DNA of 64,000 nt from Lentisphaeria bacterium (GTDB lineage Bacteria; Verrucomicrobiota; Lentisphaeria; Victivallales; UBA1829), in the NCBI GenBank assembly GCA_003526375.1, contig DPDG01000084.1, positions 369 to 64,368 of the forward strand, given 5' to 3'. Position 1 is the stretch's first letter. Each line of letters begins with the position of its first letter. Positions 45,474 to 64,000 of this stretch are shown here, one piece after another. The notes under the pieces were generated by a model, which worked only from the letters and a program-made list of their open reading frames with translations, had not been told where the DNA came from and searched no databases. Made by a program: the position numbers and the translations under genes.

Positions 45474-45721
45474 CTTTTTTCCCTCCATTCGAATGGTAGA
45501 TCCGGCTGATAGCAGTACACCTTCCGCGGCGGTGTGTATGTTTCTGTTTCTTTTGATGACCGATGGAACAACGCTAAAATTTTCTCCCACATGATGCGGC
45601 TGCCTTTCATTTTCGATTTGATTTTTGTTTCTGACCATAATATATTATGAGCAAGTAGACATCTTGTATCCACTCTGTGAATCCGTGATACAAAAATCGA
45701 AAAAAATTGGAGATACCCCGT

Positions 45722-46696
45722 ATGCCGCTGCAAAAATCCCAGATGCACCGCCTGATGCGAATTGCCGCACTGCTCAAGGAAAACCGTTACCCGAACTCGG
45801 AAACGCTGGTGAAGGAATTCCGGCGCATCGCCGTGGAGGAGGAATTGGAGATCGACTGCGGGAAAAAAACGATCCTGCGGGACATGAAGGTTCTGGAGGA
45901 AGAATTTCACTGTCCTCTTGCTTTTGACCGCGCCCGCAACGGCTACTATCTTCAGCATCACGGCTGGGATTTTATTGCCCCGGCCCTACTGGACGAAAAC
46001 GAGATGCTTGCAGCCGTCATCGGAGCGAGGATTGCGGAAGAAATCTTCCCGGCTCCCTTGAAAAACAAGATCCGCAATGCGGTGGACTATCTGCTCCAGA
46101 ACAACAATCCCGACTTTCTGGACACGGCCAACATGGAAAGTCTGAACATTCTTTCCGGACTGTATGCGAATCTGGAGCCCGACATTTTCATGACGGTCTT
46201 TCAGGGCTGGCTGACCCACCACTGTGTCAGAATTGACTATGCGGACTGGCGGGGACAGATTTCAAAACGTGTCATCGAACCGCACACGCTGGTCTTTTTC
46301 AACAATTCCTGGTACAGCAAAGCGTTTTGCCATGAGAAAAAACAGCCTCGCACGTTTTCTCTGCAAAGAATCAAAAGCGCGGAACTTCTGAAGGGGACAT
46401 TCGAGCCTGACAAGGAGATCATCGCCTCGGTCAATCCGGATGATTTTTTCAGCTTTGAAAAAGTCCAAAACGTAAAGCTGCATGCGGACAAATACGCGCT
46501 TGATCGCCTGAAGGCATTTCCTTTGCACAGCGGACAGGTCATCCATGATGACGGCACGGTCGAAATCCCGGCAGTCGCCAAAGAAGTCCTGTTTCCGTTT
46601 CTTTTCTCCCAGGAAGGAAATGTCAAAATTCTGGAACCGGTTGCCCTGAAGAAAGAATTCAAAGCAAAACTGCGGAAAATTCTCGACAACTGCTGA
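45722..46696 (+). CDS. HTH + WYL-domain transcriptional regulator (BrxR/CapW-like architecture)
   Basis: ATG at 45722 with a GGAGA RBS. N-terminal wHTH (RLMRIAALLKENRYPNSETLVKEF), central WYL-type domain (VFFNNSWYSKAFCHEKKQPRTFSLQRI), and a C-terminal extension. Confidence 0.8.
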   Translation: MPLQKSQMHRLMRIAALLKENRYPNSETLVKEFRRIAVEEELEIDCGKKTILRDMKVLEEEFHCPLAFDRARNGYYLQHHGWDFIAPALLDENEMLAAVIGARIAEEIFPAPLKNKIRNAVDYLLQNNNPDFLDTANMESLNILSGLYANLEPDIFMTVFQGWLTHHCVRIDYADWRGQISKRVIEPHTLVFFNNSWYSKAFCHEKKQPRTFSLQRIKSAELLKGTFEPDKEIIASVNPDDFFSFEKVQNVKLHADKYALDRLKAFPLHSGQVIHDDGTVEIPAVAKEVLFPFLFSQEGNVKILEPVALKKEFKAKLRKILDNC

Positions 46697-47098: not shown

Positions 47099-48340
47099 TC
47101 AGTCAAGCACTTTGCGGCAGAGTTTGCCGATCTCCCACGCGATACTCTCGTATATGCCGCAGGGATGGAACGCATTAAGCTCGTCTACCAGTGTCTGCGC
47201 CGTCCGGGGCAGCGCTTCCGCCAAGCGGGACAGTTCCACCAGCACCAGTTTGGGATTGAGATCGCAGCGCAGGGCCAGTTCTGCGAAGTGGTCTCTGGTC
47301 AGCACCCCCATTCGTGTTTCGCCGCCGATGCTCATGGCAAAACGTTTGGCAATGGAGTCGTAAACCATCGTCGAGAGCAGGTCATACGCCGGGGCGAACG
47401 ACGGCCGACCGTTCCGGTAGAGCACGGCGTAGTTCTTGGCGTGGGCGTCGCAGTTGCCGGTGAGAAAGTTGAAGATGAGCAGCCGGATGAAGCTCAATTT
47501 CCCCGCTGCGGGCATTTTGATCTCGGTCATCCTGCGCATGCACTCCTCCACGCCCGGACCGCCGTCCTCCTGATACTTGTGTTTCGGCGGCACGTTCAGC
47601 AGCTGGCAGAAGTCCTCCTGATGCAGGCGCACGGTAATGTCGTCCACCGTCTCGCGGTCAAAGCGTGTCACGGTATAAAACGGTTCGTCATTCAGCGTCA
47701 GAATATCGCACTCCGCTGCCTGGATGCCGCACTTTTGTGCGAGCCTCATGCAGAAGAACTCGTTGAACACGCTGTCGGGGAAGTTCGGAATCGCCGGTTT
47801 GATAATGTGCGTGGAGGGCGTTCCGTAAAGCGGCAGGGAGATTTTTCCGTTGCGGACGCAGGCTACCAGTTTTTCCTGCGACCCTGCGCCGGAGATGCGG
47901 ACCCCTTCGTCGCCGACGTCCAGCGGCCGCTGACCGAGGTTGTCCAAGATGCGGTATGCTTCATCACCGGAAAGGTCGCGGTAAACGGGATTTTTCAAAG
48001 ATTGCGGCGTCTGCCCCGCCGGATAGAATGACACCGCACCTGCGCAGTCCGCGCCGATCCGCTTCAGCATCCCGAAGGTGTTGTCCTCGGAAACATGGAG
48101 GATCATCGCCACCGTGGCGCGGATACGCTCGTCGGGCAGCAGATTGGAGAAGAAGTTCTCCACCGCGGGATCGTGGAAAACCTCGTCCGTCAGCGGCAGA
48201 TTCTGCGACAGCGGATAGGCGTCGGGCGAGCGCAGATACTCTGTCGAGTAGGCAAACGACATCGCGCCGTTGTCCTGCGACAGCGTCCCGATGCGGTCCG
48301 TGTTCAGAAACACATGAAGTTCATCGTGGATGTCGGACAT
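47099..48340 (-). CDS. hipA: HipA-family serine/threonine kinase toxin
   Basis: 413 aa. N-terminal LHVFLNTDRIGTL, SGAGSQEK, and catalytic loop GNCDAHAKNYAV. Confidence 0.9.
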   Translation of the reverse strand: MSDIHDELHVFLNTDRIGTLSQDNGAMSFAYSTEYLRSPDAYPLSQNLPLTDEVFHDPAVENFFSNLLPDERIRATVAMILHVSEDNTFGMLKRIGADCAGAVSFYPAGQTPQSLKNPVYRDLSGDEAYRILDNLGQRPLDVGDEGVRISGAGSQEKLVACVRNGKISLPLYGTPSTHIIKPAIPNFPDSVFNEFFCMRLAQKCGIQAAECDILTLNDEPFYTVTRFDRETVDDITVRLHQEDFCQLLNVPPKHKYQEDGGPGVEECMRRMTEIKMPAAGKLSFIRLLIFNFLTGNCDAHAKNYAVLYRNGRPSFAPAYDLLSTMVYDSIAKRFAMSIGGETRMGVLTRDHFAELALRCDLNPKLVLVELSRLAEALPRTAQTLVDELNAFHPCGIYESIAWEIGKLCRKVLD

Positions 48341-49085: not shown

Positions 49086-49285
49086 ATTATGGTTTTGTGT
49101 GTCGTGTTCCCCTTTGGGGAAGATGCGCGAACCGGCAAAAATTCGGTGCTGACAATGAAATTCGTCCTCAAACAATACGATACGGAGATGATCTCCTTCG
49201 ACCTGCGGTCGGAGGGGCTGGACTGTTTTGTCTGTTTTGTCCCTGTGATTCTGCAACGCATCAGGAAGTCGAGCGCGGATGGAAA

Positions 49286-51871
49286 ATGAGCACATTCGGA
49301 ATAAAATGTCCTGGCTGCGAAATTCTCCTGGAAGCCGATGAAAACGATATCGGAGCCAAAGTCGAATGTACTGAATGCGGTCGACCTTTTATTCTCGCGC
49401 GGAATCCAGATCCCTCTTCGGCTGAGACCGCCAACGATACTGTGACTTTTACCTTCGATGCCTTCCCGAAAGATCTGGACTACAACCAGCCGTTGTTCCT
49501 GACAATGCCCAATGGCACTTTCCCGGTGGAAAGCTGGAGCAATGTGCTTGAAAAGTGTTTTTCCTATGCGTTTGCGAATAATGCCGCGAAAGTGGGAGAA
49601 TTGGTGGACATCAAAACTCCATTTCGCAAGGCAGTCCTCATTTCTCGGCACCCCGAACGGCTGCGAAGGGTAAAGGAATTGGGCGGTGATCTTTATATGG
49701 AAACTAATCTCAGCGCCCATGGGATCGTTAAAAGTGTCTGCGGACTCATGGCTTACTGTGGATTCCCGGTGAAGGCGATTTCGGTAACCTACCGGGTCAA
49801 GTCTTCCGAGCCGCCCGCTCCGGAAAGCAAAGTCGATGCGCCCGTATCGAGTTCCGAATTCAGCAAACCGCTGGATTTTTCCACGTTTACGACCGGGATC
49901 ACGATCCCCGTCAGGGTGCATGAAGCATTTTTGAAGCACTTGTCGGTTAAATTGGAACGGGGAAAGTCTCATCCCGTGACGATCATGGTCGGGGACAGCA
50001 GTTTTCAGGTCTCGATCAACAACATCGGTTTCTCCGACCCGAACCGGAAACAAGTCCTAGCGTTTCTGTGGCGGAAGAATTCTCCGCTTGCCAAGAGCTT
50101 TCAGGCAACTTTCACTGCGGCGTATCAGCAGCTGATGGAAGATCACGCCAATCGGACTGGGATCGACACGGCTCTGACCGTTTCCTGCGGTGAACAGCCA
50201 GATGTTTTCAAAATTGCCATGGATACGCCGTTGGTCGAAAGCAAAAAGCCAGACGCGCCCGTTCAAGCCGAAACGGTCGCCCCGATCTCGCTGGAAGCAA
50301 CTTCCCAGGATGGCATCCATGGAGTTCGTATTCAAGAAAATTGGATTCGGTTCGACTTCACAAATGCACCGTCATTTGAAAGGACTGTACCCGCATATTG
50401 CTGTATCGACGGGAATGTGTTCGAAGGAAGAAACTGGGTAAGGATACTTGTGGCGCTCGTGGAATTCGAACTTGCCAAAGGGAATCCGGCATTGGAGGAT
50501 CTTTATGAGAAATCTCTGTATGGCAAGAAAACAATACGGCCATTTTTGATGAAAAGCAGAATCGAGGGGAGTCGCAATTGTTCAGAACTTTCAAACGGAT
50601 ACTGGATTAATGTCGGATGGTCTATTCCGTTTTTAATGCAATTCATACAAGCTTTTCTCCTGCATTGTGGCTATGATGAGAAACAGGTCGTGATATACGG
50701 TGTGCCTAAAGCGAACAATTCTGCAACGCACGAAAGTTCTCAGACGAAGAAGACTGAAGTACATGGGGTTGACATGGAAAAAGCTGAGACCTTTTTGAAA
50801 ACGGCTGGATTGCGAGGGGCTACTGTGCAGGAATTGATCGATGCGATCCAGCCCAGTGCCGTATTCTGGTCAACAAAAAACCTGCTGGATGAAAACTTGA
50901 ATGTCATCGCCATGCCCGATAATCGCTATGTGCACGCCGACTGTTTTGTCGATCTGGATGAAGCAGAAGATGTTTTTGGGAAAATCCTCAGCTCCCATTT
51001 TGCGCGATTTGACGGATACAGCAACAATCAGCTTCTTTTTGGCGCGGCTTTACAAGAACTTTCAATGTTCCTGAATGATAATGACTGCGAAAACATTAAT
51101 GTGGTATATGCCATTGCCCGGTACCTGTTTGAGAAGAAGGCAGCAGGTAAAAAATATAAATTCGCTCCACCACACATCTTTGAGACCGAACCGGATTATC
51201 CACTGAACCTTAAGGGCCTGATGATCCGCCTTGCGAGAAGCAACGGAGGTATCCTCCATGAGGTTGATGCAAAACATTATCTTCAAAAGACCATGCTTAC
51301 CTATGGGAGTATAGGGCAACTGCTGCAGGTTGGAAACGATAAGATGTTCCTGATGTATGACCGTGACAGGTATTTGTTGAGCGAAGTTATTGGAATTGAC
51401 GATGCATGGTGCCGCCAGATGCATGATCGGGTGGATGACTTATTCCGCAAGGCCGATGTGGCGTATGTGATCCCGAGGGATATCAGTGAGGCATGGCTCA
51501 CCACCTTGCCGGTTTTGCCGCTGGGACTCGCATGGACACATCTTCTGCTTCAGGAAATACTTGATAAGTACCCCGCCATCGGATTCAAGTCGATTTCAGC
51601 CGGTCTGAATCAGGCGTATCATACATTGGCAGCAGCTTTTGTTTCAATTGATTCTCCTCTGCAGACTTTCCCGGATGTGGTAACGCTTTTCATGGAGGAA
51701 CACCATAAATTGCCTACACGCATGTCCGGCGAGGAGTTGCGGATCGAATTAAGGGACAAAGGAATGCTGGAAGCCGGTGAAATGATCTATTCGATTCACA
51801 AGGCGCTGAATGACTATCGTTTCGCATGGACGGATGAAAATAAAACAGTGCTGATTCGCGGGAATAAATAA
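49286..51871 (+). CDS. 861-aa protein with an N-terminal MJ0042-type zinc ribbon, otherwise unknown
   Basis: The ATG at 49286 gives MSTFGIKCPGCEILLEADENDIGAKVECTECGRPFIL (CxxC...CxxC). The track start 49097 adds 63 unlikely residues. It is the first gene of the operon. Confidence 0.7.
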   Translation: MSTFGIKCPGCEILLEADENDIGAKVECTECGRPFILARNPDPSSAETANDTVTFTFDAFPKDLDYNQPLFLTMPNGTFPVESWSNVLEKCFSYAFANNAAKVGELVDIKTPFRKAVLISRHPERLRRVKELGGDLYMETNLSAHGIVKSVCGLMAYCGFPVKAISVTYRVKSSEPPAPESKVDAPVSSSEFSKPLDFSTFTTGITIPVRVHEAFLKHLSVKLERGKSHPVTIMVGDSSFQVSINNIGFSDPNRKQVLAFLWRKNSPLAKSFQATFTAAYQQLMEDHANRTGIDTALTVSCGEQPDVFKIAMDTPLVESKKPDAPVQAETVAPISLEATSQDGIHGVRIQENWIRFDFTNAPSFERTVPAYCCIDGNVFEGRNWVRILVALVEFELAKGNPALEDLYEKSLYGKKTIRPFLMKSRIEGSRNCSELSNGYWINVGWSIPFLMQFIQAFLLHCGYDEKQVVIYGVPKANNSATHESSQTKKTEVHGVDMEKAETFLKTAGLRGATVQELIDAIQPSAVFWSTKNLLDENLNVIAMPDNRYVHADCFVDLDEAEDVFGKILSSHFARFDGYSNNQLLFGAALQELSMFLNDNDCENINVVYAIARYLFEKKAAGKKYKFAPPHIFETEPDYPLNLKGLMIRLARSNGGILHEVDAKHYLQKTMLTYGSIGQLLQVGNDKMFLMYDRDRYLLSEVIGIDDAWCRQMHDRVDDLFRKADVAYVIPRDISEAWLTTLPVLPLGLAWTHLLLQEILDKYPAIGFKSISAGLNQAYHTLAAAFVSIDSPLQTFPDVVTLFMEEHHKLPTRMSGEELRIELRDKGMLEAGEMIYSIHKALNDYRFAWTDENKTVLIRGNK

Positions 51872-51901
51872 GCGATAAGCCTAAGGGATAGAGAGTCAAA
51901 T

Positions 51902-54235
51902 ATGTATGGATATGAATGGACGGACAAGAACGGCATATACCGGTTGTCCGTTAACAGCAAAATTGAAAAAGAGATCCGGCCGGTTTTCAAAGATGAGCTG
52001 GATTATTTCGGCTTCAATGAACACTGGTCATACCCGAATACCAAGGCTCCGCTGCTTTGGGCAGAAGGAATCCGCCGCTATGTAATGAACGGTGTCTGTG
52101 TAGCGGAAGCTGTCGGCGGCGGATTTTACACCAAACCGGAAATAAAAATCTATCAGAACGGTCTGAAGCTGAAACCGATAAATGTCGGTGCACTTTGGAA
52201 AGCAAATGAGCGGCTGATGCTGGGCCTCGAAAAAACGGCAATGGATTTTATCCGCAACACTTATGATACATATGAAAAAGCGAGCATGGCTTTTGCTGTT
52301 GCCTTCAGTGGAGGGAAAGATTCTCTGGTTCTCCTTGATCTTGTATCCAGAGCACTTTCTCCGGACAAATTCTCCGTCGTGTTCAGTAACACCGGCATGG
52401 AACTTTCCACGACCATTCAGACAGTAGAAAAAGCGAAGAAGCATTGGGCATCACTGAAGTTTTATGAAGCAAGAAGTCATCTTAATCCCGCTGACAGCTG
52501 GCGAGAATTTGGCCCTCCGGGACGCCGAATGCGCTGGTGTTGCGCTGTCCACAAGTCTGTTCCGACCATTCTGCTTCTCCGGAGAATAACCGGAGATTAC
52601 ACCGTAAAAGCTGTTGTTTTTGACGGTGTCAGGGCAGAAGAAAGTGCGGCAAGAGCCGAGCGTGATGAAATCAGTGTCGGCGCGAAAAATATAAACCAAA
52701 TTAACTGTAGCCCAATACTGAAATGGAATTCATCTGAGTTATTTTTGTATCTTCTGAACTATGGAATTTTGTTAAATGATGCGTATCGTGTAGGCTTTAA
52801 TCGTGTAGGCTGCACAATTTGTCCTCTATCATCAGGATGGCGGGATAGTATTAGCAATCATGTTTACCCCGCCGAAATATCCCCATTGCTGAGCCAAGTA
52901 GAAAAATATACTGATGGTATTGGTATTAAGTCTTCTCAAAGAAAAAACTACATTGAGCAAAATGGTTGGCGCACTCGAATGGGCGGTCGCGGTCTTCCGA
53001 ATGGGGGCAACCGGTTTGAAGAAATAATAGCAAATGATCGAATTACGTTTAATTTTTTGCGAAAGACTCAAAATTGGCTTGATGTGTGCCCGATCCTTGG
53101 TCCCATAGTATATCATGAAGGGGATACGTTTACTCAGCTGATTGACAGGCAACAATTTCTCTTCCAGGTAAATAATAAATCTGTTTCTTATTGGCCTTAC
53201 TCAAAAATGGATAGGTTTATACTCAGCCATTTACGAGGTGTTGCCAATAAAACTGCTTATTGCTTTGGATGCAAAGCATGTGAGGTTGAATGTCCTGTTA
53301 ATGCATTTGCGATCACAGAAGAAAACAAAATCTATATAAGAGAAGAAAAGTGTATTCACTGTAGTAATTGCATTGAATTCACAAACGGGAAAGGTTGTTT
53401 AGCCGCAAAATCACTTTCCGTAACAAGAGGAGCAAACGGCATGGATTTAAAAGGAATGAATCGTTATCAGACCTTTGGTCTGCGGCGTCCGTGGCTTGAA
53501 CATTTTTTTGCAAACAGAGAAAATTGTTTTACCATGGGGGTATTGGGTAATCGTCAGTATGATTCACTGAAAGTATGGCTTCGCGAAGGTGGTCTCCTGA
53601 CCGCATCCAGCAAAGGTGAAAAATCAGGGATTCCGACTCCGCTTTTTGACAAGATCCAATCCCTCGGAGCCGGCAATCCTTTGACCTGGGCGATTATTTG
53701 GACCAATCTTGCATGCAACTCCATCATTGTAAAGTGGTACATGTTGAATGCCGCCGCAGGGGAAGTTTATGAGAAGAACGACCTGATTTTTCTGCTCGGT
53801 GATGATTATTCCCTGTCCACCCGTGATAATGCCGTGACTGCTCTGCTTGAGACGTTTCGCCATAGTCCCATAGGAACTGTTTTGAAGCAGGGTATTCCCA
53901 TTCCCAGCGGCAGCAGCTATAAGTTCTCAAAGCAGGGCTGGAACACTCCGGATGCAGTCGCTGTTCTTTATGCTTTGTACATGTGGGCTGAAGCCACGGG
54001 GCGCTATACCTTTACGCTGAGTCAGATGGCCGCAGCCAGAGGCAATGCGGATGTCAAGGGTGTCGACCCGGTTTCCATCTTCGGTATCGCTCCGGATCGG
54101 TTTAAGGATATTCTTCAGGATATCGCCCTGCAGTTTGACAAATACATCCGCACAACTTTTGTGGCGGATCTGGATAATGTTCAGCTTTTCCCGGAATACA
54201 AATCCATCGACATCTTGGATTTGATCGCGAAGTAA
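51902..54235 (+). CDS. brxP: BrxP-like PAPS-reductase-family PP-loop protein with an embedded 2x[4Fe-4S] ferredoxin-type module
   Basis: PP-loop FSGGKDS (52307-52324). RRMRWCCAVHK. CFGCKACEVECP and CIHCSNCIEF...GC (about 53261-53400). 777 aa. Confidence 0.8.
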   Translation: MYGYEWTDKNGIYRLSVNSKIEKEIRPVFKDELDYFGFNEHWSYPNTKAPLLWAEGIRRYVMNGVCVAEAVGGGFYTKPEIKIYQNGLKLKPINVGALWKANERLMLGLEKTAMDFIRNTYDTYEKASMAFAVAFSGGKDSLVLLDLVSRALSPDKFSVVFSNTGMELSTTIQTVEKAKKHWASLKFYEARSHLNPADSWREFGPPGRRMRWCCAVHKSVPTILLLRRITGDYTVKAVVFDGVRAEESAARAERDEISVGAKNINQINCSPILKWNSSELFLYLLNYGILLNDAYRVGFNRVGCTICPLSSGWRDSISNHVYPAEISPLLSQVEKYTDGIGIKSSQRKNYIEQNGWRTRMGGRGLPNGGNRFEEIIANDRITFNFLRKTQNWLDVCPILGPIVYHEGDTFTQLIDRQQFLFQVNNKSVSYWPYSKMDRFILSHLRGVANKTAYCFGCKACEVECPVNAFAITEENKIYIREEKCIHCSNCIEFTNGKGCLAAKSLSVTRGANGMDLKGMNRYQTFGLRRPWLEHFFANRENCFTMGVLGNRQYDSLKVWLREGGLLTASSKGEKSGIPTPLFDKIQSLGAGNPLTWAIIWTNLACNSIIVKWYMLNAAAGEVYEKNDLIFLLGDDYSLSTRDNAVTALLETFRHSPIGTVLKQGIPIPSGSSYKFSKQGWNTPDAVAVLYALYMWAEATGRYTFTLSQMAAARGNADVKGVDPVSIFGIAPDRFKDILQDIALQFDKYIRTTFVADLDNVQLFPEYKSIDILDLIAK

Positions 54236-54247
54236 GGAGACCGTGTT

Positions 54248-57200
54248 ATGGCGAAGTACAACACCTACATTGAATTAAGCCCCCATTATGAATCTGTGGT
54301 GGATATTGATTCCGAATCCCGATATCCCGACATGTGGCAGGATTACATCGTCCATGAGGACATGCAGAAAGCCGTAGAATGTATCTGTGATTCTTTGCGA
54401 TATGAAGATAAGGATAAGCGGCGTTCCTTTTGGATCCACGGTACTTACGGGACCGGCAAAAGTTACGCAGCCATCGTGCTGAAGCATCTTTTTGAGGATA
54501 GCATCCCCAATATCCATAAATTTCTGTCAAAACAAATGCTGATCCCATACAGGGAGCGTTTCCTTTCAATTCGTGAGAAAGGTGATTTTCTGGTGATCTG
54601 GAAGAGCCAGGCAACAGATATTCGTAACGGCACTCAGCTCATGATGACAATGGAGCATGCTATTCGTAAAAAATTGAAGGAAAAATACGGAGAAAAAGCG
54701 TATTTCGGCAAGAATTCTCTGATTGCGGCGGCCCGGGATGCCGTAGAGGATTCCGACATCAATTGGGATGAGCTTTTTTCAAATCCGACCTATGCGCTTT
54801 CTGAAGAATACAGCTCGTTTAGGGAATTTCACGATGAGGTTTTGAATGGGAATCTGAAGGCCGCAAATATCGTGGCTCGCATCTATCGCGATAAGGGCTG
54901 GGGGTTCTTTACTTCACTGCAAATGTTTAAGGACTGGGTCGCAGATGTAATCGAAGGCAACCATCTTCAGGACACCGGCATTATCTTTATTTGGGACGAA
55001 TTTACCTCTTATCTTCGAAATAATTCTACAGATGATGTATTGCAGCCACTTTCGGAATTTTGTAAAGAGCAGCCTTTCTTTATGTTTCTTATCGTTCATA
55101 AAGCAGTAAGCTGGTTAAGTCAAATCGGCGAGGAGGTTTATGAGCAAATCATTCATCGTTACCACTCGCTTAATTTCCATGTCAGTGAGAGCGCGGCCTA
55201 TGAGTTGATCGGCAGTTCTATTTTGACTCGTGCCGGAATGGAGGAGCAGTGGAATGCGGAGCGGGACAAACTGATGAAGTCGATCAGTAAAAATTTTGCT
55301 GACTTCGACAACTTGGACATAAGTAGTAAGAAAGAGCGGCTCCGTCAACTTTGTCCTCTGCATCCGATGACGCTTTCGCTGCTGGCCATCGTGGCTCAAA
55401 ATTTCGGAGCGTCCCAGCGTACGCTGTTCCGTTTTATGAAAGACCCGAAAGGTGCCGAACAAAATGTGGGGTTCATCTATTACATAAACCACTTTGGCCC
55501 GGATGACTGGCGTTGGCTGACGCCGGATTTCTTGTGGGATTACTTCTTTACCAAAGAAAGTGATTTGCGCAGTTTTTCTCCAGAAGCAAAAAGTGCTTAT
55601 CAGCATTACATAACCAAGCGGGAATTCATTTCTGACGAATATCATTTGCATGTGTTTAAGGCCGCCATGCTTCTGCTTGCCGTCATGTCTTCGGGGAACG
55701 TCAGCAACCTTTATAGTCAGGCCACAACGCAACGTAAGGTTCCCTCGACCAGCAACACGCTTTATAAGTGCTTTGCCGGCCAGTTGAACAAAGAAGATGT
55801 GGAGATGTATCTTTCCGATCTTGAGCAGATTGGTCTCATACGTCTTGATGCCATGTCCAATGGCGACAAACGGCTCCAAATCCCCTACAGCGGAAATACT
55901 GATGTGTTTGATGTCCGCAAGGGTATGCTGATGAAGAGGTATTCCCGTTACGAACTCTTTAAGAAAAACGGTATTTTTGCCAAGTCGATGGAAGCGAAGA
56001 TTTGGGATAAGACCAATGCGTCCTACGGCAGGATGTACATTGCGGCCTGTGATGCAGGTACGAATTCGACCAATTTGAGGTTTAATGAGATTCAGGATGA
56101 GCTTAAAAAGTATCCTTATAAATTCGGAATCCTTGTAATCACGATCTCAGAATCGAGTCAGTTCGCTGCGATGCAGGACAAGGTTAAAGCTCTTGCCGGG
56201 CAGGACACAACGGGACGCATGGCGGTCTATTTAATGAAATCTCCGCTCACAGACGATCATTTGGACCGTTGGTACAATGCCATGACACATTCCGAGCTTG
56301 CCGCAGAGGAAGGCAAGAGCGGTGATTCCGAGCGATATAAGGATGAGGCGAGTACGATTATTGAAGAATGGTCCGGCTCCGCTAAGGACGATCAGCTGAT
56401 GGTAGTTTGTGGTGACAAGGTCTACCCATCGGAATACGGCACAGATTTCTTTGCTCCGAAGTTGGAGAAAGATATTTTGTTTGGCTCCATATTTACAGCC
56501 GCGCCCGAATTGATTGTAACAACCAATACGGCTTTTAAGAAAAACCAGCAGAGTACAGCCTTGGCAGGCATACAAAAGAAGGTGCCTAATACGCAGGTTG
56601 GAAATATTGTCAACGGTTTGAAAACGGCTGGAGTGTGGGAAACGGATGGGCTTGAGAAGCTTGCCCAAAGTTCCGGCAATAATGGCGCTGTTGCCATTGC
56701 AAAAATTGCAAGCTTTATTTTACAGCGTTTTTCGCAAGGGATGCAAATTAAGCTGGATGATTTTGTGCAAGAACTGCACGGAGCTCCTTTCGGCTACTAC
56801 GATAACATGACTTGCGGCTATATTCTCGGTTTTCTGCTCAGATACTATGTCAACAGTGAGTTCAGTTGGAATAAAGGAGACAATAATCCCTGGCCACTGA
56901 ATGAACAAACTCTTGCCACCATGATTACGGCCATTTGTAAGGAGGATGTCGTCAATAATTATCTTTCTCCCGGTACTGAAATTTGGCAGAAATTCAAGCC
57001 CTATGTGCAAAAGGTTTTTAAACTTCAGGACGGTGAAGCGGTCAATGAAACTGAAGCCCGCAAATATATGTCCAAACAATGTACGGAAAAAGCTGGTGTT
57101 CCATTCTGGGTTCTCAAGTTTGTGACAGAAGAAAAATTCGGAGGAGCGGCAACAAAACAAGTCGCGAACGATATTATTGATCTCTTCTGCGACTTCATGA

Positions 57201-58444
57201 ACGAGAACGGTGATCAGGAGCAGGTGATGAGCAGTATCACGGTGAAGTTTACTGGCCGGGGCTCGTTGCGAAAAGTCCTGACCGATCTTTATTTTGACCA
57301 AAATACAGTTTATGATGCATTCAGTTCCTTCATTTCTCAGCGGTGCCAACAATTGCAGGCGTTGCGAGAGAACATTGGTTTGACCAGTCATGATCTCTTC
57401 GATGCTATCCATCAGATGATGCAAGGTCAGGTTTCCACATGGACTGAGGATCAAGTCGGAGAAAAGCTTGCAGAACTCTGCGTCGAATATCGTGCGGTTT
57501 CAATTCTGAATGGTGCTCTCAATCTGAAACGAAAGAGCATTAAGGCCTTGAGCAATGATATTGAGAATGCCTTGGGAAATATGAAGATACCTGGGACCGT
57601 GATCGAAAAGCTGGATTACGCATGGCTTCCGGCGCTAAGGGCCATGTTACAGATAATTGCCTCACAATGGTCCAAGATTGAATTGGCCGACCGTGAAGCT
57701 TATGTGCAACTTCTGAGCAATGATGCGCAAACAGTATGGAGTAACATTACCTCGTCCAAAACAGTTCTTCAGCGTTACATGGAGAAGCATGATTACAACT
57801 GTAGTGAGGACGAACTGGATGGTATTTATGCCGCGCTGAAACCGGTTAGTTACAACTCCCCCGCCTCTGACTTTGATGCCAGAATTGATACGCAACTTAA
57901 GAAGATCGCATATAACCGTAACAAAGTGCGAATACAGAAACTTTGGGAATCTCAGAGCGGGTTTGAGTCTGTTGCGAAATGGTGTGATAATTTTGCTGTA
58001 CCGATCCAATGGGTCGTAGAAGATGAATTACTGCCGCATATCACCGTTTTGAAAACGGTGCAGGATGGCCGACTCTCAGACAGTATTGCGCTTCATAACG
58101 CAACGCAGTATTTCGAGAACCATACTGTCAGTGTGCTGAAAGACAAGGCATTCATAAAGACCCGCTTCATTGCACAAATCGGCGAAAGCTATCGTGCCGC
58201 ATTTGAGGCATCCGAAACAGTGCTGGTTTCTCGTCTGAAGACAAATGCAAAGTTGTCCTCGGACGTTTATCTATGGGCAAACAAGGTCGCGGAAATCCGC
58301 AAGATCATTGACGCATTCCTGCTGGATAAATATTGCGGAGAAGCAAAAAAGAAAGTTAAGACCATGCCTGAAGCCAAGTTGCGTGAAAGGGTCGTTAAGC
58401 TACTGGAAGAGAATCCTGATCTTTATACCCTGTTTATGAGTTGA
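54248..58444 (+). CDS. brxC: BrxC/PglY-like large P-loop ATPase
   Basis: AAGGAGA RBS. Walker A GTYGTGKS (54440-54463) about 65 aa from the N-terminus. 1398 aa. It sits between brxP and pglZ. Confidence 0.75.
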   Translation: MAKYNTYIELSPHYESVVDIDSESRYPDMWQDYIVHEDMQKAVECICDSLRYEDKDKRRSFWIHGTYGTGKSYAAIVLKHLFEDSIPNIHKFLSKQMLIPYRERFLSIREKGDFLVIWKSQATDIRNGTQLMMTMEHAIRKKLKEKYGEKAYFGKNSLIAAARDAVEDSDINWDELFSNPTYALSEEYSSFREFHDEVLNGNLKAANIVARIYRDKGWGFFTSLQMFKDWVADVIEGNHLQDTGIIFIWDEFTSYLRNNSTDDVLQPLSEFCKEQPFFMFLIVHKAVSWLSQIGEEVYEQIIHRYHSLNFHVSESAAYELIGSSILTRAGMEEQWNAERDKLMKSISKNFADFDNLDISSKKERLRQLCPLHPMTLSLLAIVAQNFGASQRTLFRFMKDPKGAEQNVGFIYYINHFGPDDWRWLTPDFLWDYFFTKESDLRSFSPEAKSAYQHYITKREFISDEYHLHVFKAAMLLLAVMSSGNVSNLYSQATTQRKVPSTSNTLYKCFAGQLNKEDVEMYLSDLEQIGLIRLDAMSNGDKRLQIPYSGNTDVFDVRKGMLMKRYSRYELFKKNGIFAKSMEAKIWDKTNASYGRMYIAACDAGTNSTNLRFNEIQDELKKYPYKFGILVITISESSQFAAMQDKVKALAGQDTTGRMAVYLMKSPLTDDHLDRWYNAMTHSELAAEEGKSGDSERYKDEASTIIEEWSGSAKDDQLMVVCGDKVYPSEYGTDFFAPKLEKDILFGSIFTAAPELIVTTNTAFKKNQQSTALAGIQKKVPNTQVGNIVNGLKTAGVWETDGLEKLAQSSGNNGAVAIAKIASFILQRFSQGMQIKLDDFVQELHGAPFGYYDNMTCGYILGFLLRYYVNSEFSWNKGDNNPWPLNEQTLATMITAICKEDVVNNYLSPGTEIWQKFKPYVQKVFKLQDGEAVNETEARKYMSKQCTEKAGVPFWVLKFVTEEKFGGAATKQVANDIIDLFCDFMNENGDQEQVMSSITVKFTGRGSLRKVLTDLYFDQNTVYDAFSSFISQRCQQLQALRENIGLTSHDLFDAIHQMMQGQVSTWTEDQVGEKLAELCVEYRAVSILNGALNLKRKSIKALSNDIENALGNMKIPGTVIEKLDYAWLPALRAMLQIIASQWSKIELADREAYVQLLSNDAQTVWSNITSSKTVLQRYMEKHDYNCSEDELDGIYAALKPVSYNSPASDFDARIDTQLKKIAYNRNKVRIQKLWESQSGFESVAKWCDNFAVPIQWVVEDELLPHITVLKTVQDGRLSDSIALHNATQYFENHTVSVLKDKAFIKTRFIAQIGESYRAAFEASETVLVSRLKTNAKLSSDVYLWANKVAEIRKIIDAFLLDKYCGEAKKKVKTMPEAKLRERVVKLLEENPDLYTLFMS

Positions 58445-58461
58445 CGAAGGAGGGGAGAGCC

Positions 58462-60822
58462 GTGGTAATCACTGAAATTGAGGAAAAGCTTAGTCAGGAA
58501 CGGGGCTTCGGGTCCCGCTTCCCAGCCCGGATTATATTTGCCGAAAGTCTTGAGTCCTATTCTTTGCTCGAACGCCAGCTGAAGGCCATCTGCGATATCA
58601 CGATCAATGTTGCAGATTTTTGTAGTGCCTTGGATACAGTTCCTCAATTTGACCGGATCAAAGCGATACTGGAAGAACACGAGGGGAAACAGATATTATT
58701 GCTTTCTGTTGGTGAGTATCTCCGTCTGTGTATTAACCGTGAGTTAAATGCAGAACGTCGTCAATTTCTCTCATTTTGGGAGACGCAACAGGCAGAAACA
58801 TCGAGGACCAGAATCATCATGCCGATGTTCAGTTGTCGCGACATCTTCGACCGAGTCGCAGGTGCTATAGACGAGCGCCAGCAGGATTATATCTGGGTTC
58901 TTGACAGTGTGCCTCCCATTGAGCGTTATACTGTTTCCGTTTACTCTCCTCAATTTAAGGATGCAATCAAGCCCGACGCCAGGAATTTGACAGAATGGCT
59001 GCGTGATTGGCAGAAATTCCTCCTGAAAGATACATCCTGTTCAATAGTGACCAATCAAGAGAGAAATGCTGAGATCTCCTATGGCACAGTGAGTATCAGA
59101 CTGATCAATAGCCCGTTTGGCTACCTGGCGGGTCTTTTGGCAGAGGGAACTGCTCTTGTCGAAAAGTGGGAAAGCAATGAATTTTGGAGTCAAATGGTCA
59201 ATTATACCTCCCATTTTCACGACGGGGTTTCTTTTGCAAAGATAGTTCTTCATTCCCTGAATATCAAAACATTTGACTTCGTTTCGATAGTGACAAGATG
59301 GACTACCTTGAGCAAATTCCAAAAAGAACTCGTGTGGCTTTGGTATCGTGTGTTTCCGACAGAAGAATATTATTCCTATGCTTGCGAAAAAGCGGATTCT
59401 GCAGCGGATATCCCGGCTAAAATCAGAGACGAAATTCTACTGGTAGCCAGCAGGAGTCCTATATGGATCGAACAAAGGATGGCGGCAATGAAGGTTTTGA
59501 ATTTTCCTTCATTTGACGATGCTTATTTTGCGAAACTTGACAAACTTCCTCTTGCAGAAACGAAACTTCAGCTTTTGACCTATCAAACGCATGAGGAAAG
59601 AACCTTTGCCGTGAAAGTAATCAGTAATCTTTTGCGGAACGGAGCAGAGTCCGATGCCGTGGCTGACACTATTTCCGATGCTTATCCTGCGCTGGCAAGT
59701 TATATGAAAGATAACACTGGCTGTGACGAAGCATTGGATAAATATATGCGGTGGTACCGAAAGAACAAACTTATCAATCGGTATCCAGGTGATTATCCCG
59801 TTCCGATGACCTTTGATCGCTTCGATGCCCGTTTTAAGTTGATGCATCAGATGGAAGGCAAAGATTGTGTTGCTTTCTGGATCGACGGTTTTGGTGTGGA
59901 ATATGCTCCGCTCTTTCTGCATGAGCTGAAAGCGAGAGGAATAGAACCTGATTCGGTAAAAATTGCAACGGCGCTTCTCCCGACAGAGACGAGTTATAAT
60001 CACCAATGGGATGAGAATGATCCAATGACGCTGAAGTGGGATCGCTTGGATTCATGCTCTCATAAAGGTATGCCGGACGACAAAAGTTATTATTCTTGCA
60101 TTGTTCACCAACTTGCCGTTTTTGCCGAAGCCGCCGAAAAAGTCGAAAAACTTTTGGAAGAGCATAACTATGTGATTATCACAGGGGATCATGGTAGCAG
60201 CCGTTTTGCAGCGCTTGCATTTCATGATTCCAGCGTTGTCCCTGTGGCGCCCCCTCGTAAATCGACGATTAGGAGTTTTGGACGTTTTTGTGAACTTGAT
60301 GAAAAATCCATCGACATGATTCCACTCCCAGATACCAGCAAATTGATTGCTACAATTGGTGGCAAAACAGTTCTGGTCATGAACAACTATCAACATTTTG
60401 CTGTAGGTGGCAACATCGCTAGCGGGAATGCAGAAGACAATGATGTTGTCGGCGAAACCCATGGAGGAAATACGGCGGAGGAGCGTCTTGTTCCCGTCTT
60501 TGTAGTAAAAAAAGGAAAAAAACTTGTGCCGATTACTTGCAAACCGAAAAATCCATATGTGACCAAGAAAAATGGTCATGTAGAAACAATATTCTCATTC
60601 AGTCAGTCGATATTTACTCTTGAGGTCGCTCAAGGGAGCAAAAAAGCCGTTTGCACAGAAATTTCGGCAGGGGAATGGCAGATTGCCTTGGATAATGTGA
60701 CAACAGATGTAATTATTCTTTCTGTTATTGCAAACGGGAGACTCTTACCCAATGTCACGCTGAAAGTTAAAACCTCGGGTATCAGCAAGAACAGTGATCC
60801 GTTTGGAGATATGGGATCATGA
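58462..60822 (+). CDS. pglZ: PglZ-domain (alkaline-phosphatase superfamily) protein
   Basis: GTG at 58462 after an AAGGAGGGGAG RBS (track TTG 58441 is the alternative). PglZ core AFWIDGFGVEY...ITGDHGSSRF...ETHGG. Confidence 0.85.
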   Translation: MVITEIEEKLSQERGFGSRFPARIIFAESLESYSLLERQLKAICDITINVADFCSALDTVPQFDRIKAILEEHEGKQILLLSVGEYLRLCINRELNAERRQFLSFWETQQAETSRTRIIMPMFSCRDIFDRVAGAIDERQQDYIWVLDSVPPIERYTVSVYSPQFKDAIKPDARNLTEWLRDWQKFLLKDTSCSIVTNQERNAEISYGTVSIRLINSPFGYLAGLLAEGTALVEKWESNEFWSQMVNYTSHFHDGVSFAKIVLHSLNIKTFDFVSIVTRWTTLSKFQKELVWLWYRVFPTEEYYSYACEKADSAADIPAKIRDEILLVASRSPIWIEQRMAAMKVLNFPSFDDAYFAKLDKLPLAETKLQLLTYQTHEERTFAVKVISNLLRNGAESDAVADTISDAYPALASYMKDNTGCDEALDKYMRWYRKNKLINRYPGDYPVPMTFDRFDARFKLMHQMEGKDCVAFWIDGFGVEYAPLFLHELKARGIEPDSVKIATALLPTETSYNHQWDENDPMTLKWDRLDSCSHKGMPDDKSYYSCIVHQLAVFAEAAEKVEKLLEEHNYVIITGDHGSSRFAALAFHDSSVVPVAPPRKSTIRSFGRFCELDEKSIDMIPLPDTSKLIATIGGKTVLVMNNYQHFAVGGNIASGNAEDNDVVGETHGGNTAEERLVPVFVVKKGKKLVPITCKPKNPYVTKKNGHVETIFSFSQSIFTLEVAQGSKKAVCTEISAGEWQIALDNVTTDVIILSVIANGRLLPNVTLKVKTSGISKNSDPFGDMGS

Positions 60823-61022
60823 GACGGAAAAAAGTTGAATGCTGCGAGTGTCGCAAGACGTTAGTAAAGGATGAGGTTGCTTTGTGCAAAAAGTTACTCG
60901 CCACCGATACGGCAGTTTTTTACTGTATTGACTGCCTGGCTGCATATTTGGAGTGCACAAAGCAAGACCTTGAAATCAAAATACAGGAATTCAAAGAACA
61001 GGGTTGTGCCCTGTTTTTGTAA
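60819..61022 (+). CDS. 67-aa CxxC/CxxC mini-protein (zinc-ribbon-like)
   Basis: ATGA overlap with the pglZ stop. VECCECRK...FYCIDCLAAYLEC. Confidence 0.5.
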   Translation: MRRKKVECCECRKTLVKDEVALCKKLLATDTAVFYCIDCLAAYLECTKQDLEIKIQEFKEQGCALFL

Positions 61023-61036
61023 ATCAGGAGAAAATT

Positions 61037-62476
61037 ATGATGTTGGAAGATAAAATTCGCGATGTCTTCGGCGACATGGTCGTGCTGAAAAATCCGGAAC
61101 GGGCTGAATTTTTTAAGAATTTGAGCCTGCCTTCATATATGCGAGATTGGCTGGTCATGAAGTTTTCAAATGAAAATGGGGAAATTGATTACGACAATGT
61201 ACTCAGCTATATTCGGCAATATATCCCGAGTCGAGAGGATTATGAACAATTCAAGTTTGAAATGGTTAATGGTGAAACCGTTCGTTTTCTTGCAAGATTA
61301 CGTGTTGCTGTTGACATTAAAACAGGAAAGACCATGTTTGAATTGCCTGATTTTGGGGGAGCCAAGGCTGGTGCTGCTGGTGAGGTTACTAATGATGTTG
61401 TAAATAGATGGAAAGATACGCTTCTTAAAGAAAGCGAAAATTGGGGGGTTCTCGAGCTTATCTGGGGAAAGGATAGGGCAAAGGGAGTAGTAAAACTCAT
61501 TGGATACAGCCCATTTTGCCCCTATACTGTTAATTTGGACTATTATAAAGATGCAAGGAATTCATTTACGACAGAAGAATGGATTGATCTTCTTATCGCG
61601 GCTGCAGATTATAACCCGGAAGGTTACGAATCCGAAGCTCAAAAACTCTGTTTCCTCAGGCGACTGCTCCCCTTTGTGGAAAAGCGTATCAACCTCATGG
61701 AACTTGCGCCTAAAGGGACTGGGAAAAGTTATGTGTATCAAAAAATCAGCAAGCGAGGGTGGTTGATAACAGGAGGTACGGTCTCTCGTGCCTCTCTTGT
61801 CTATGATAATGCAAAAAAGACCGGAGGGCTTATTACTCGTTTCGACTTTGTCGGGTTTGATGAAATTCAGTCCATGTCGTTTGTGCAGCCAACGCAGATT
61901 CAGACCGCACTGAAGGATTACATGGAATTCGGCGAAGTTAAGGGATTCGACGCATCTGTTGTTGCCGGGGCAGGAATCATTGTGCTTGGTAATATTGATG
62001 CCAGCAGATTTAATACCAATGAGAATATGATGGTGGAAGTCAGTCCGATTTTCAAGGAATCGGCTTCATTGGATCGCTTTCACGGTTTTATTCCTGGCTG
62101 GGAACTTCCTCGTATGCACCAAGGTCTTGTCGCCAATGGTTGGGCTCTGAATACTGAGTATTTTGCGGAAGTTTTGCATCTCATGCGTGATGATCTGAGT
62201 TATGCTACAATTGTTGACGATTGCCTTCTTCTTCCACCAAAACCAGACCAGCGTGATCTGACTGCCATTACGCGGTTGTGTACCGCGTTTATGAAGTTGA
62301 TTTTCCCGAATGCAAAATGCAAAGAAGATATTTCACCAGAAGACTTTATAAAATATTGCCTGGAGCCGGCCAAAGAAATGCGCAGCGTGATAAAGAAGCA
62401 ACTTTGCATTATTGATCCAAAGGAATTCAATGTTCCTGGGAAGAAAGATATTCCTGATATTCGCTACAAGTATTGA
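61037..62476 (+). CDS. brxL: BrxL-like ATPase (Lon-related AAA+ core, short form)
   Basis: ATG at 61037 with an AGGAG RBS. N-terminal NLSLPSYMRDWLVMKF...GETVRFLARLRV as in BrxL. Walker A APKGTGKS and Walker B VGFDEIQ. 479 aa. Confidence 0.75.
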   Translation: MMLEDKIRDVFGDMVVLKNPERAEFFKNLSLPSYMRDWLVMKFSNENGEIDYDNVLSYIRQYIPSREDYEQFKFEMVNGETVRFLARLRVAVDIKTGKTMFELPDFGGAKAGAAGEVTNDVVNRWKDTLLKESENWGVLELIWGKDRAKGVVKLIGYSPFCPYTVNLDYYKDARNSFTTEEWIDLLIAAADYNPEGYESEAQKLCFLRRLLPFVEKRINLMELAPKGTGKSYVYQKISKRGWLITGGTVSRASLVYDNAKKTGGLITRFDFVGFDEIQSMSFVQPTQIQTALKDYMEFGEVKGFDASVVAGAGIIVLGNIDASRFNTNENMMVEVSPIFKESASLDRFHGFIPGWELPRMHQGLVANGWALNTEYFAEVLHLMRDDLSYATIVDDCLLLPPKPDQRDLTAITRLCTAFMKLIFPNAKCKEDISPEDFIKYCLEPAKEMRSVIKKQLCIIDPKEFNVPGKKDIPDIRYKY

Positions 62477-62486
62477 GGTGAGAATC

Positions 62487-63620
62487 TTGGCAAAGAATTA
62501 CATTTACGCCGATAATGCGGCGACCACCAAACTGGCTCCCGAAGCACTCGAAGCCATGATGCCGTTTCTCACCGATGAATACGGCAATCCGTCCAGTTTG
62601 TATTCCTTCAGCAGATCCGCGAAAAAGGCTTTAGCTGATGCCAGAGCTGTCATCGCCGAATGTATTGGAGCATCTCCGGAGGAGATCTTCTTCACCAGCG
62701 GCGGAACCGAAAGTGATAATTGGGCGATCAAAGGTTTTCTGCCGTATGGGAAGGTGATTGCATCTGCAATTGAGCACCATGCTGTTATGAATTCTCTTGC
62801 TTATTATGACCATTTTCAGCATGGTCCGGGCAAATTGCTGTCGGTAGACAAACGAGGAACTGTCTCCTTCAAATCGTTAGAAAATGCTCTTTCCCGCCGG
62901 GTGGCATTGGTGTCGGTTATGCTGGCTAATAATGAAATCGGAACCATCGAACCGGTCAGGGAACTGGCTGCAATGACTCATGAGTATGGCGCGGCGTTTC
63001 ATACTGATGCCGTTCAGGCCGTCGGTCATATTCCCGTAAATGTCGGAGCTCTTGGTGTTGATTTACTTTCCGCCTCGGCACACAAATTTCATGGGCCCAA
63101 GGGAATCGGGTTCCTTTATTGCAAGAAAGGAGACCCCTTGGAAAGATTTCTGGATGGCGGACAACAGGAAGCCGGGATGCGCGCAGGCACGGAAAATGTT
63201 GCTGCCATCGTTGGTATGGCGACTGCGTTGAGACTCTGCTGCGAAAGAATGAACGAAGTTACTGCCCGTTTGACCGAGATGACCAGCTGTTTCAGTAAAA
63301 TAATCAATGCCAACATTCCTGAAGCAACATTCAACGGAGACTCGGAACATCGTCTGCCGGGTCACATCAGCCTGTCCATCCCTGGTATTTCAGGAGAAGC
63401 TCTGATGCATGTCCTCGATTTGAAAGGTATCGCCGTATCGACGGGTGCAGCCTGCGATTCCCGTTCGACCAAAATTTCAGACGTGTTGAAAGCGATCAGG
63501 CTGCCGGTGAAACTGGCGAAGGGGACCATCCGAATCACTTTGGGAGCGTATAATACCGTGGATCAGGCACAATATATCGCCGACAAAATCGTTGAATACT
63601 TCAGGAACGTCTCAAAATGA
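62487..63620 (+). CDS. class V aminotransferase-fold cysteine desulfurase (NifS/IscS/DndA-like)
   Basis: TTG at 62487 (or GTG at 62478) after a GAGGTG RBS, 1-10 nt past the brxL stop. YADNAATT, TSGGTESDN, PLP-lysine SAHKFHGPKG, and active-site loop STGAACDS. Confidence 0.9.
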   Translation: MAKNYIYADNAATTKLAPEALEAMMPFLTDEYGNPSSLYSFSRSAKKALADARAVIAECIGASPEEIFFTSGGTESDNWAIKGFLPYGKVIASAIEHHAVMNSLAYYDHFQHGPGKLLSVDKRGTVSFKSLENALSRRVALVSVMLANNEIGTIEPVRELAAMTHEYGAAFHTDAVQAVGHIPVNVGALGVDLLSASAHKFHGPKGIGFLYCKKGDPLERFLDGGQQEAGMRAGTENVAAIVGMATALRLCCERMNEVTARLTEMTSCFSKIINANIPEATFNGDSEHRLPGHISLSIPGISGEALMHVLDLKGIAVSTGAACDSRSTKISDVLKAIRLPVKLAKGTIRITLGAYNTVDQAQYIADKIVEYFRNVSK

Positions 63621-64000
63621 AAACTTATAAACAAATAATATCCGAGGTCGGGCAGATAGGTTATGAGTATGCTGCAGACATTGAAAGATGGTATAAAGAA
63701 GACGGATTACCTCTTGACGAAATGAGTCATTCTGAGCTTTTTGATTATTTTACAGCTGGAGGAGACGCATTCCCGGAACAAGCTTGGTCTTGGGCTGGAG
63801 AGTATGAGTGGATTAATGATGACGGAACAATTCATTATTTGGATGAATGTGGTAATATTAAAGATGGCACTGCTGACGAGTTGGAAGATACCTTTAATAC
63901 TGCAATCAGACGGTATATAAACGAACACTATTCCAAGCTTATGGTTGCTGATGATTATAAATTGCGAGTGGAACATAATTTTGTAGGTAATAAATTCAAA
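63617..64000 (+). CDS. acidic hypothetical protein, 3' end outside the window
   Basis: The ATG at 63617 overlaps the desulfurase stop (ATGA). The frame stays open for 128 codons to the window edge (MKTYKQIISEVGQIGYEYAADIERWYKEDGLPLDEMSH...). It is not in the ORF track because it has no stop. Confidence 0.5.
   Translation, partial: MKTYKQIISEVGQIGYEYAADIERWYKEDGLPLDEMSHSELFDYFTAGGDAFPEQAWSWAGEYEWINDDGTIHYLDECGNIKDGTADELEDTFNTAIRRYINEHYSKLMVADDYKLRVEHNFVGNKFK

Follow-up and report, generated by a model that had tools for sequence, protein, structure and literature searches.

Type 4 BREX has been established as a phosphorothioate (PT) system (PMC12914056; Nat Commun, 22 Jan 2026), which marks self DNA with sulfur and not with a methyl group. 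Of the BREX genes, brxP and brxC form the minimal set that makes PT, given a desulfurase such as SufS, and synthesis has been shown in Bacteroides BREX-4 systems that have no operon-encoded desulfurase and use SufS (PMC12914056). The same work describes BrxP as in effect a fusion of SspD with SspB, and BrxC as a homolog of SspC. In a second study, 255 of 457 type-4 taxa (56%) were found to have a cysteine desulfurase “not previously associated with BREX systems”, which often occurs alongside a small zinc-finger protein and was proposed as a possible sixth core type-4 component (PMC12839542; NAR, 27 Jan 2026). The patchy presence of the enzyme, which is missing from the remaining 44% of taxa in that survey, was attributed to IscS, NifS or SufS substituting for it (PMC12839542).

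The locus described here lies in a window of 64,000 nucleotides, by which we mean the whole stretch of DNA analysed. It matches the description in PMC12839542 in gene and operon type and in the zinc-finger companion, and the role proposed there, sulfur mobilisation for BrxP, is the one considered below; nothing essential differs. The association of a desulfurase with BREX type 4 was already published in January 2026. Our survey is an independent confirmation, and the window adds one well-documented example of a known association rather than a discovery.

Among the better-known PT systems, DndA of Streptomyces lividans is likewise a group I desulfurase that uses PLP and is presumed to donate sulfur, and its gene neighbours that of a PAPS-reductase-like sulfurtransferase. 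In contrast to DndABCDE, the partners at this locus are BrxP and BrxC, not DndC, DndD and DndE: no DndB, DndD or DndE matches were obtained among the operon proteins, and DndC models match BrxP weakly (27 bits). The likeness to SspA of Vibrio cyclitrophicus lies in the partner set, as SspD-like, SspB-like and SspC-like components are all represented here in the form of BREX-4 proteins, while the operon differs from SspABCD by the addition of PglZ and BrxL. The housekeeping NifS/IscS enzymes (1ECX; Escherichia coli IscS, 1P3W) are the closest sequence relatives of solved structure and share all catalytic residues with the desulfurase studied here, but the latter has no IscU/NifU-type partner nearby and is located in a mobile defence operon.

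The features of the locus are collected in the table. From the 861-aa protein gene to the end of the desulfurase gene (49286-63620), all genes are on the plus strand and are separated by gaps of ≤30 nt or joined by 4-nt overlaps.

Table. Features of the BREX type 4 locus and its surroundings (window coordinates).
Feature	Position	Strand	Basis and remarks
tRNA-Ala	33152-33228		
66-aa ORF	49089-49289		5′ of the 861-aa gene
Protein of unknown family, 861 aa; first large gene of the operon	49286-51871	+	No Pfam, PADLOC or NCBIfam match; 861-aa call in source contigs
BrxP	51902-54235	+	PADLOC BrxP 764 bits; weak DndC and SspD matches; Pfam PAPS_reduct 1e-28, Fer4 families
BrxC/PglY ATPase, SspC homolog	54248-58444	+	PADLOC BrxC 240 bits, SspC 82 bits; Pfam DUF6079 at N-terminus
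PglZ, type 4 form	58441-60822	+	NF033445 “BREX-4 system phosphatase PglZ” 262.6 bits (cutoff 140); PADLOC PglZ
Zinc-finger protein, 67 aa	60819-61022	+	CxxC...CxxC and C-terminal KIxEFKEQGCxLF; no Pfam family
BrxL, short form, 479 aa	61037-62476	+	TIGR02688 409 bits (cutoff 329); PADLOC BrxL 598 bits
Putative RBS of desulfurase, GAGGTG	62475-62480	+	Read from sequence; overlaps brxL stop codon; 6 nt 5′ of TTG 62487
Predicted cysteine desulfurase, group I NifS/IscS-type, BREX type 4-linked group	62487-63620	+	Pfam, PADLOC, NCBIfam, phmmer against the PDB, operon-linked profile
AT-rich ORF, 5′ part of a 270-aa frame	63617-64000, runs off the window	+	Full length is L001:12581-13393

By its gene content, the operon is of BREX type 4, with brxP, brxC, pglZ and brxL on one strand and a PAPS-reductase protein predicted to replace the PglX methyltransferase. 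The assignment is based on the BrxP score, on the BREX-4 PglZ and short-BrxL models exceeding their cutoffs, on the BrxC-SspC match and on the missing methyltransferase: no methyltransferase family was matched among the operon proteins scanned with Pfam, PADLOC and NCBIfam, a set that excluded the 66-aa ORF. BrxP combines a PAPS-reductase/PP-loop domain, a 4Fe-4S ferredoxin-like region and a C-terminal DUF4007-like region, and its translation shows an FSGGKDS PP-loop motif as well as CxxCxxC...CxxCxxC. It is presumed to be both the sulfur acceptor and the DNA sulfurtransferase. The first-pass annotation had placed the desulfurase gene in a BREX operon, which is confirmed, but left unstated that this is type 4, the phosphorothioate-making type.

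Two further observations concern individual operon proteins. A homolog of the 861-aa protein (28-79% identity) is encoded immediately 5′ of brxP in 36 related loci. An identical BrxL protein is found on 24 human-gut metagenome contigs and is listed at NCBI under a Lentisphaeria metagenome-assembled genome.

At the 5′ boundary of the desulfurase gene, the brxL stop codon TGA occupies 62474-62476, and the in-frame start candidates are GTG 62478 and TTG 62487, with the stop codon at 63618-63620. We take TTG 62487 as the probable start, since it is spaced 6 nt from GAGGTG, agrees with the N-termini of the ~378-aa homologs and corresponds to the TTG start with which a 73%-identical desulfurase gene is called in L091. 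The gene is thereby taken as 62487-63620(+), encoding 377 aa with the N-terminus MAKNYIYADNAATT, and counted from this TTG the gap to brxL is 10 nt. GTG 62478 is unlikely because the codon sits within the Shine-Dalgarno sequence itself and so cannot use it. ATG 62430, chosen by the gene callers on the source contigs (396 aa, 47-nt overlap with brxL), is considered less likely. Accordingly, the start at 62478 given by the first-pass annotation, a GTG inside the RBS, is replaced by the TTG that matches the homolog N-termini. Its other readings of the two junctions hold: the gene begins 1-10 nt past the brxL stop, has its own GAGGTG RBS, and ends in an ATGA (63617-63620) in which its stop codon overlaps the ATG of the next ORF. 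No terminator-like site was found on the plus strand at the brxL-desulfurase junction. One promoter-like match falls within the 5′ end of the desulfurase gene; the number of matches equals the expectation from shuffled sequence, and it is not counted as evidence for an internal promoter.

Judged by its sequence, the encoded protein is an intact desulfurase of the group I NifS/IscS-type, which is DndA/SspA-like by context and not as closest sequence. Residues 6-362 match Pfam Aminotran_5 (PF00266; E=1.3e-78) over profile positions 1-369 of 371. The PLP lysine K200 (AHKF), the catalytic C323 (STGAAC), H97/H98, D174, Q177 and R349 do not vary among 52 operon-linked homologs and align with their counterparts in solved desulfurases, as determined by phmmer against the PDB. 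To place the protein among desulfurases, we used the scores of curated models, phmmer against the PDB, and a profile of the 52 operon-linked enzymes run against the PDB and its own members. The best NCBIfam match is NifS with 432.0 bits, under the curated cutoff of 530.75. The IscS models reach 306 and 295.9 bits (IscS cutoff 643.2 not reached), the DndA equivalog TIGR03235 303.7 bits (cutoff 480) and SufS 175.9 bits (cutoff 475.1). The PADLOC models for DndA, which has no curated cutoff there, and SspA score nearly equally (416 and 407 bits).

Among solved structures, phmmer ranks 9WEP, an unnamed desulfurase (290 bits), and the NifS-like protein of T. maritima, 1ECX (259 bits), ahead of NFS1/IscS (231-249 bits), whereas SspA (6M4J, 172 bits), DndA (3VAX, 166 bits) and SufS (~85 bits) score lower. 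The alignment with IscS (404 aa) ends at IscS residue 372, and the C-terminal tail of IscS has no counterpart in the 377-aa protein. With the operon-linked profile, members score 534-651 bits and 119 independent full-length database matches 538-650 bits, as against 442 bits for the best solved desulfurase, 361-384 for IscS, 300 for SspA and 277 for DndA. This separation in score indicates that the operon-linked enzymes form a distinct group within group I. Most likely, the enzyme is a functional equivalent of DndA and SspA which by descent belongs to a separate NifS/IscS-like group carried inside BREX-4 operons. The gene had been labelled a “NifS/DndA-like” cysteine desulfurase at first pass. 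The Aminotran_5 match, the NifS score and the catalytic residues bear out the desulfurase, and NifS as best NCBIfam match bears out the first half of the label; the second half applies by context, the sequence being closer to NifS/IscS than to DndA.

The position of the gene directly after brxL is conserved. For the survey, 16 BrxL proteins were aligned and one genome per GTDB species was scanned, which yielded 241 confirmed loci. The 80 most similar loci were kept with 10-kb flanks and searched by tblastn with all operon proteins, and the 67 loci in which brxL is complete and followed by 1.2 kb or more of sequence could be evaluated. In 59 of the 67 (88%), brxL is followed immediately, on its own strand, by the gene for a desulfurase homolog (44-61% identity). 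This value overestimates the frequency over all type 4 systems and exceeds the published 56%, because our sample consists of the 80 loci whose BrxL is closest to the one studied here. In four of the 59, the small zinc-finger gene alone separates the two genes, and the commonest projected brxL-desulfurase gap across the survey loci is 6 nt. Eight of the 67 loci are without a desulfurase; a 382-aa ORF after brxL in L071, considered as a missed desulfurase, is TelA instead. The positive loci come from genomes labelled, among others, as Bacillota, Bacteroidota, Pseudomonadota, Chloroflexota and Synergistota (Lachnospiraceae, Oscillospiraceae, Odoribacter, Bacteroidaceae, Burkholderiales, Syntrophomonadaceae, Flexilinea, Fretibacterium and Mitsuokella), although the labels given to metagenome-assembled genomes may be wrong. 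Two short contigs with Thermoguttaceae and Eggerthellaceae labels also show a desulfurase after brxL and were left uncounted, their flanks being too short. Given its conservation in 59 of 67 evaluable loci, the adjacency of brxL and the desulfurase gene is far beyond chance.

The reverse search leads to the same arrangement. The desulfurase was searched against 5.8 billion proteins, and six near homologs were chosen for their long contigs, blind to gene context. All six (90, 73, 68, 57, 57 and 56% identity) are encoded directly 3′ of brxL in BREX-4 operons, some with the zinc-finger gene between brxL and desulfurase; one of the six is from a Victivallaceae genome.

The 3′ side of the gene presents a different picture. 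The downstream 270-aa ORF has a GC content of 37.5%, compared with 48% for the desulfurase gene, and no Pfam, PADLOC or NCBIfam match, in line with its first-pass description as AT-rich and unrecognised. Searches of 5.8e9 proteins and of 1.84e9 representatives gave 6 and 8 relatives, respectively, too few to build a deep alignment for structural modelling. None of the 80 genome loci carries it, and its recurrence is confined to close relatives (L091, L092 and, in part, L087/L088). In other BREX-4 operons, the slot 3′ of the desulfurase is occupied by unrelated genes (a TIR protein, RhuM, small unknown ORFs). The ORF is thus probably a lineage-specific accessory gene outside the conserved system. 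Owing to this restriction to close relatives, the ATGA coupling is uninformative on the membership of the desulfurase.

On a larger scale, the operon is part of a mobile island. The core genes, including those for glycogen phosphorylase, PEPCK, oxaloacetate decarboxylase and a two-component system, end at the tRNA-Ala gene, near which the island begins. There follow a DDE transposase, a large serine recombinase, Prim-Pol/DUF3987, a WYL-WCX (BrxR-like) protein and HipBA. The desulfurase gene is located ~29 kb inside this island and not at the edge of the core genome. The GC content of the operon is ~45%, compared with ~52% in the flanks. Contig L001, with 52 differences from the window over 12,964 positions, reaches 7 kb further and encodes, 3′ of the desulfurase, the 270-aa ORF, a metallophosphoesterase, two RlaP proteins, HipA/HipB and HTH proteins.

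A second desulfurase was not detected in the 64-kb window by tblastn. No Fe-S assembly families were matched among the ~35 major window ORFs scanned or in the left flank of the island, and no Fe-S assembly genes are among the called genes in the 7 kb past the window on L001. An empty site with the same flanks and without BREX was not found: 6/6 displayed upstream-HipA contexts carry a BREX operon. From the single locus, the first-pass annotation had proposed that the desulfurase belongs to the system, on the grounds of translational coupling on both sides, and had seen no nifU/iscU/sufBCD-type partner. The proposal itself is upheld by the brxL adjacency in 59 of 67 loci, by the same slot in six of six homologs and by the depth of the gene in the island. 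Of the grounds given, the coupling on the downstream side is no evidence of membership, since none of the 80 genome loci has that ORF. The missing Fe-S partner is likewise confirmed for the ORFs scanned in the window and extends over the 7 kb beyond it, and in no contig examined does the same gene occupy the same position without BREX genes.

The desulfurase gene has evidently been exchanged between BREX-4 operons, as the following comparisons suggest. The core proteins of L087/L088 share 30% (BrxP), 25% (BrxC), 27% (PglZ) and 44% (BrxL) amino-acid identity with those of the window, while for their desulfurase the identity is 89% at the protein and 86% at the DNA level. The DNA similarity of L087/L088 to the window is bounded by the start and stop of the desulfurase gene. 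In L091, BrxL is 97% identical and the desulfurase 73%, with DNA identity down to 33-60% over 62750-62970.

We consider it likely that the enzyme is the dedicated sulfur donor of this BREX type 4 system. The predicted PLP enzyme would mobilise the sulfur of free L-cysteine as a persulfide on Cys323, releasing alanine. From there, the persulfide sulfur would be passed to BrxP, a PP-loop/PAPS-reductase protein homologous to DndC and SspD, and BrxP together with BrxC would then place the phosphorothioate in host DNA. PglZ and BrxL would then act against unmarked invading DNA. That this enzyme is the donor and transfers sulfur directly to BrxP, we infer from PMC12914056 and from the precedents of DndA and SspA. 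A built-in desulfurase would make the mobile operon self-sufficient in activated sulfur, whatever host it has entered. Against a dedicated donor, the desulfurase moves between operons in which BrxP is only 30% identical, and such exchange between divergent operons speaks against an interface at which desulfurase and BrxP would have tightly co-evolved as specific partners. Moreover, as the Bacteroides systems make PT with SufS, a dedicated operon copy is not strictly required, and the gene is missing from eight of our 67 loci and from 44% of the taxa in PMC12839542.

BrxP is itself a candidate Fe-S protein with Fer4-type CxxCxxC motifs, and the desulfurase might chiefly build or repair its [4Fe-4S] cluster(s) instead of donating DNA sulfur. 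According to You et al. 2007 (cited in PMC12914056 and PMC12839542), DndA can assemble DndC into an Fe-S protein, and since the locus has no IscU, NifU or SufBCD scaffold, cluster assembly would take place directly on the client protein. In Dnd and Ssp, however, the sulfur in the DNA is taken to come from the desulfurase (PMC12914056, PMC12839542), and we judge a chief role in cluster assembly improbable. Fe-S loading of BrxP as an additional role is compatible with sulfur donation; only as the sole role is it a rival. Still less probable is that the enzyme serves some other sulfur function of the island, such as RNA or small-molecule thiolation or cysteine depletion in infection, and does not feed BrxP. 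The movement of the cassette among very different BREX-4 operons, and hence the missing co-evolution with a particular BrxP, would fit such a function. Yet every case sampled occupies the same BREX-4 operon slot, BREX-4 is the sole BREX type whose chemistry needs activated sulfur, and no alternative sulfur acceptor is conserved alongside, as the downstream genes vary between loci.

That the gene is a host housekeeping NifS/IscS-type gene abutting the island is effectively refuted, even though NifS is the best curated family and solved IscS/NifS structures outscore DndA and SspA. The gene is far from the left bounds of the island (tRNA-Ala, transposase and serine recombinase), and the genes beyond it are still of island type (HipBA, RlaP, HTH). 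In GC content it is in keeping with the operon and unlike the flanks. Furthermore, the adjacency to brxL is kept across genomes labelled as several phyla, and all six near homologs looked up are operon-linked.

A bolder version of the sulfur-donor model would place the desulfurase in a portable sulfur-delivery module, in which the zinc-finger protein would act as a persulfide relay or adaptor to BrxP and not as a transcription regulator. It draws on the cassette swaps between cores that are 25-45% identical and on the fifth cysteine of the nearly universal zinc-finger protein, which is invariant, and we hold it to be improbable. If true, BREX-4 phosphorothioation would include a relay step in sulfur trafficking that is new and peculiar to this system.

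A single-sequence AlphaFold2 model of the zinc-finger protein has a pLDDT of 59.8, too poor for a fold search. Homologs of the protein occur in 83 related loci, with 72 distinct sequences, and C8, C11, C36, C39 and C63 are invariant in 84/84. C63, the fifth cysteine, lies within the nearly invariant C-terminal KIxEFKEQGCxLF. Six of the eight loci without a desulfurase likewise encode the zinc-finger protein.

The desulfurase gene, which follows brxL as the last conserved gene of the BREX-4 operon, is mosaic relative to its own operon. We compared the window copy (62487-63620) with its counterparts in two related BREX-4 contigs, L087 (10001-11149) and L091 (3676-4821). In L087 and the related contig L088, the BREX-4 core is far diverged from that of the window, with amino acid identities of 30% for BrxP and 44% for BrxL, and yet the desulfurases share 89% protein identity with the window protein. 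DNA similarity sets in at the desulfurase start and ends at its stop. L091 has a BrxL with 97% identity to that of the window, but within its desulfurase gene nucleotide identity drops to 33-60% across 62750-62970. This gene-bounded similarity in L087/L088, together with the divergent stretch beside a near-identical BrxL in L091, suggests from sequence comparison that the sulfur-donor gene has recombined in a cassette-like manner among BREX-4 operons. As to its boundaries, automated gene prediction on the contigs of origin placed the start at ATG 62430, resulting in a 396-aa product and a 47-nt overlap with brxL, whereas the position of the RBS and the N-termini of homologs favour TTG 62487. 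In public annotations, this protein probably begins with 19 spurious residues.

The first-pass annotation had described the ORF downstream of the desulfurase as AT-rich, unrecognised, and overlapping the desulfurase stop by ATGA, and this description holds: the 270-aa ORF, which continues into the near-identical human-gut contig L001, has a GC content of 37.5% and no family match. Only 6-8 relatives were found in libraries of billions of proteins. In other BREX-4 operons, unrelated genes occupy the slot after the desulfurase: L095 encodes a TIR protein there, L089 has an unknown ORF of 314 aa followed by RhuM, and others carry small ORFs that are likewise unknown. L091 has an SLFN-like helicase and a DUF7380/EMARD_N gene inserted between the 270-aa ORF and the metallophosphoesterase.

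Homologs of the 67-aa zinc-finger protein were found at 83 related loci, some of which have its gene in an alternative slot between brxL and the desulfurase gene. Five cysteines are invariant: C8, C11, C36, C39, and C63, the last of which lies within a C-terminal motif, KIxEFKEQGCxLF, that is itself nearly invariant. Of the eight loci without the desulfurase, six still encode the protein. No Pfam family matches it, and its single-sequence structure model was of unusably low quality; PMC12839542 mentions the protein only in brief.

At the operon start, the 861-aa protein begins with a CxxC-containing segment at its N-terminus. Because 36 related loci encode a homolog (28-79% identity) immediately upstream of brxP, it may constitute a further conserved BREX-4 accessory or effector.

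Features flanking and within the BREX-4 operon (window coordinates unless marked L001)
Feature	Position	Strand	Remark
tRNA-Ala(GGC)	33152-33228		first in left island part
DDE transposase	33640-35130
Large serine recombinase	36122-37822	-
HARE-HTH protein			between recombinase and Prim-Pol/DUF3987
Prim-Pol/DUF3987	39437-41698	-
Sigma-70-like protein			between Prim-Pol/DUF3987 and WYL-WCX regulator
WYL-WCX (BrxR-like) regulator	45707-46696
HipA + HTH antitoxin	47099-48340	-	last in left island part
66-aa ORF	49089-49289	+	operon start
861-aa protein	49286-51871	+	operon start; without known family
67-aa zinc-finger protein	60819-61022	+	between pglZ and brxL
270-aa ORF	63617-64000, continuing as L001:12581-13393	+	after desulfurase
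Metallophosphoesterase (257 aa), two RlaP nucleotidyltransferase-like genes, second HipA/HipB module	L001:13482-17578		operon-downstream

Given the gene content of the left part of the island, including the tRNA gene, the transposase, and the serine recombinase, the BREX-4 operon is cargo of an integrative element beside a tRNA gene. With the second HipA/HipB module downstream in L001, HipBA toxin-antitoxin pairs thus lie on both flanks of the operon. Two gut metagenome variants of the same operon contain genes called in two pieces: BrxC in L002 (2857-7053; 876 aa and 507 aa) and the 861-aa protein in L099 (6470-9055; 473 aa and 340 aa). Such splits may stem either from degeneration of the system or from misassembly.
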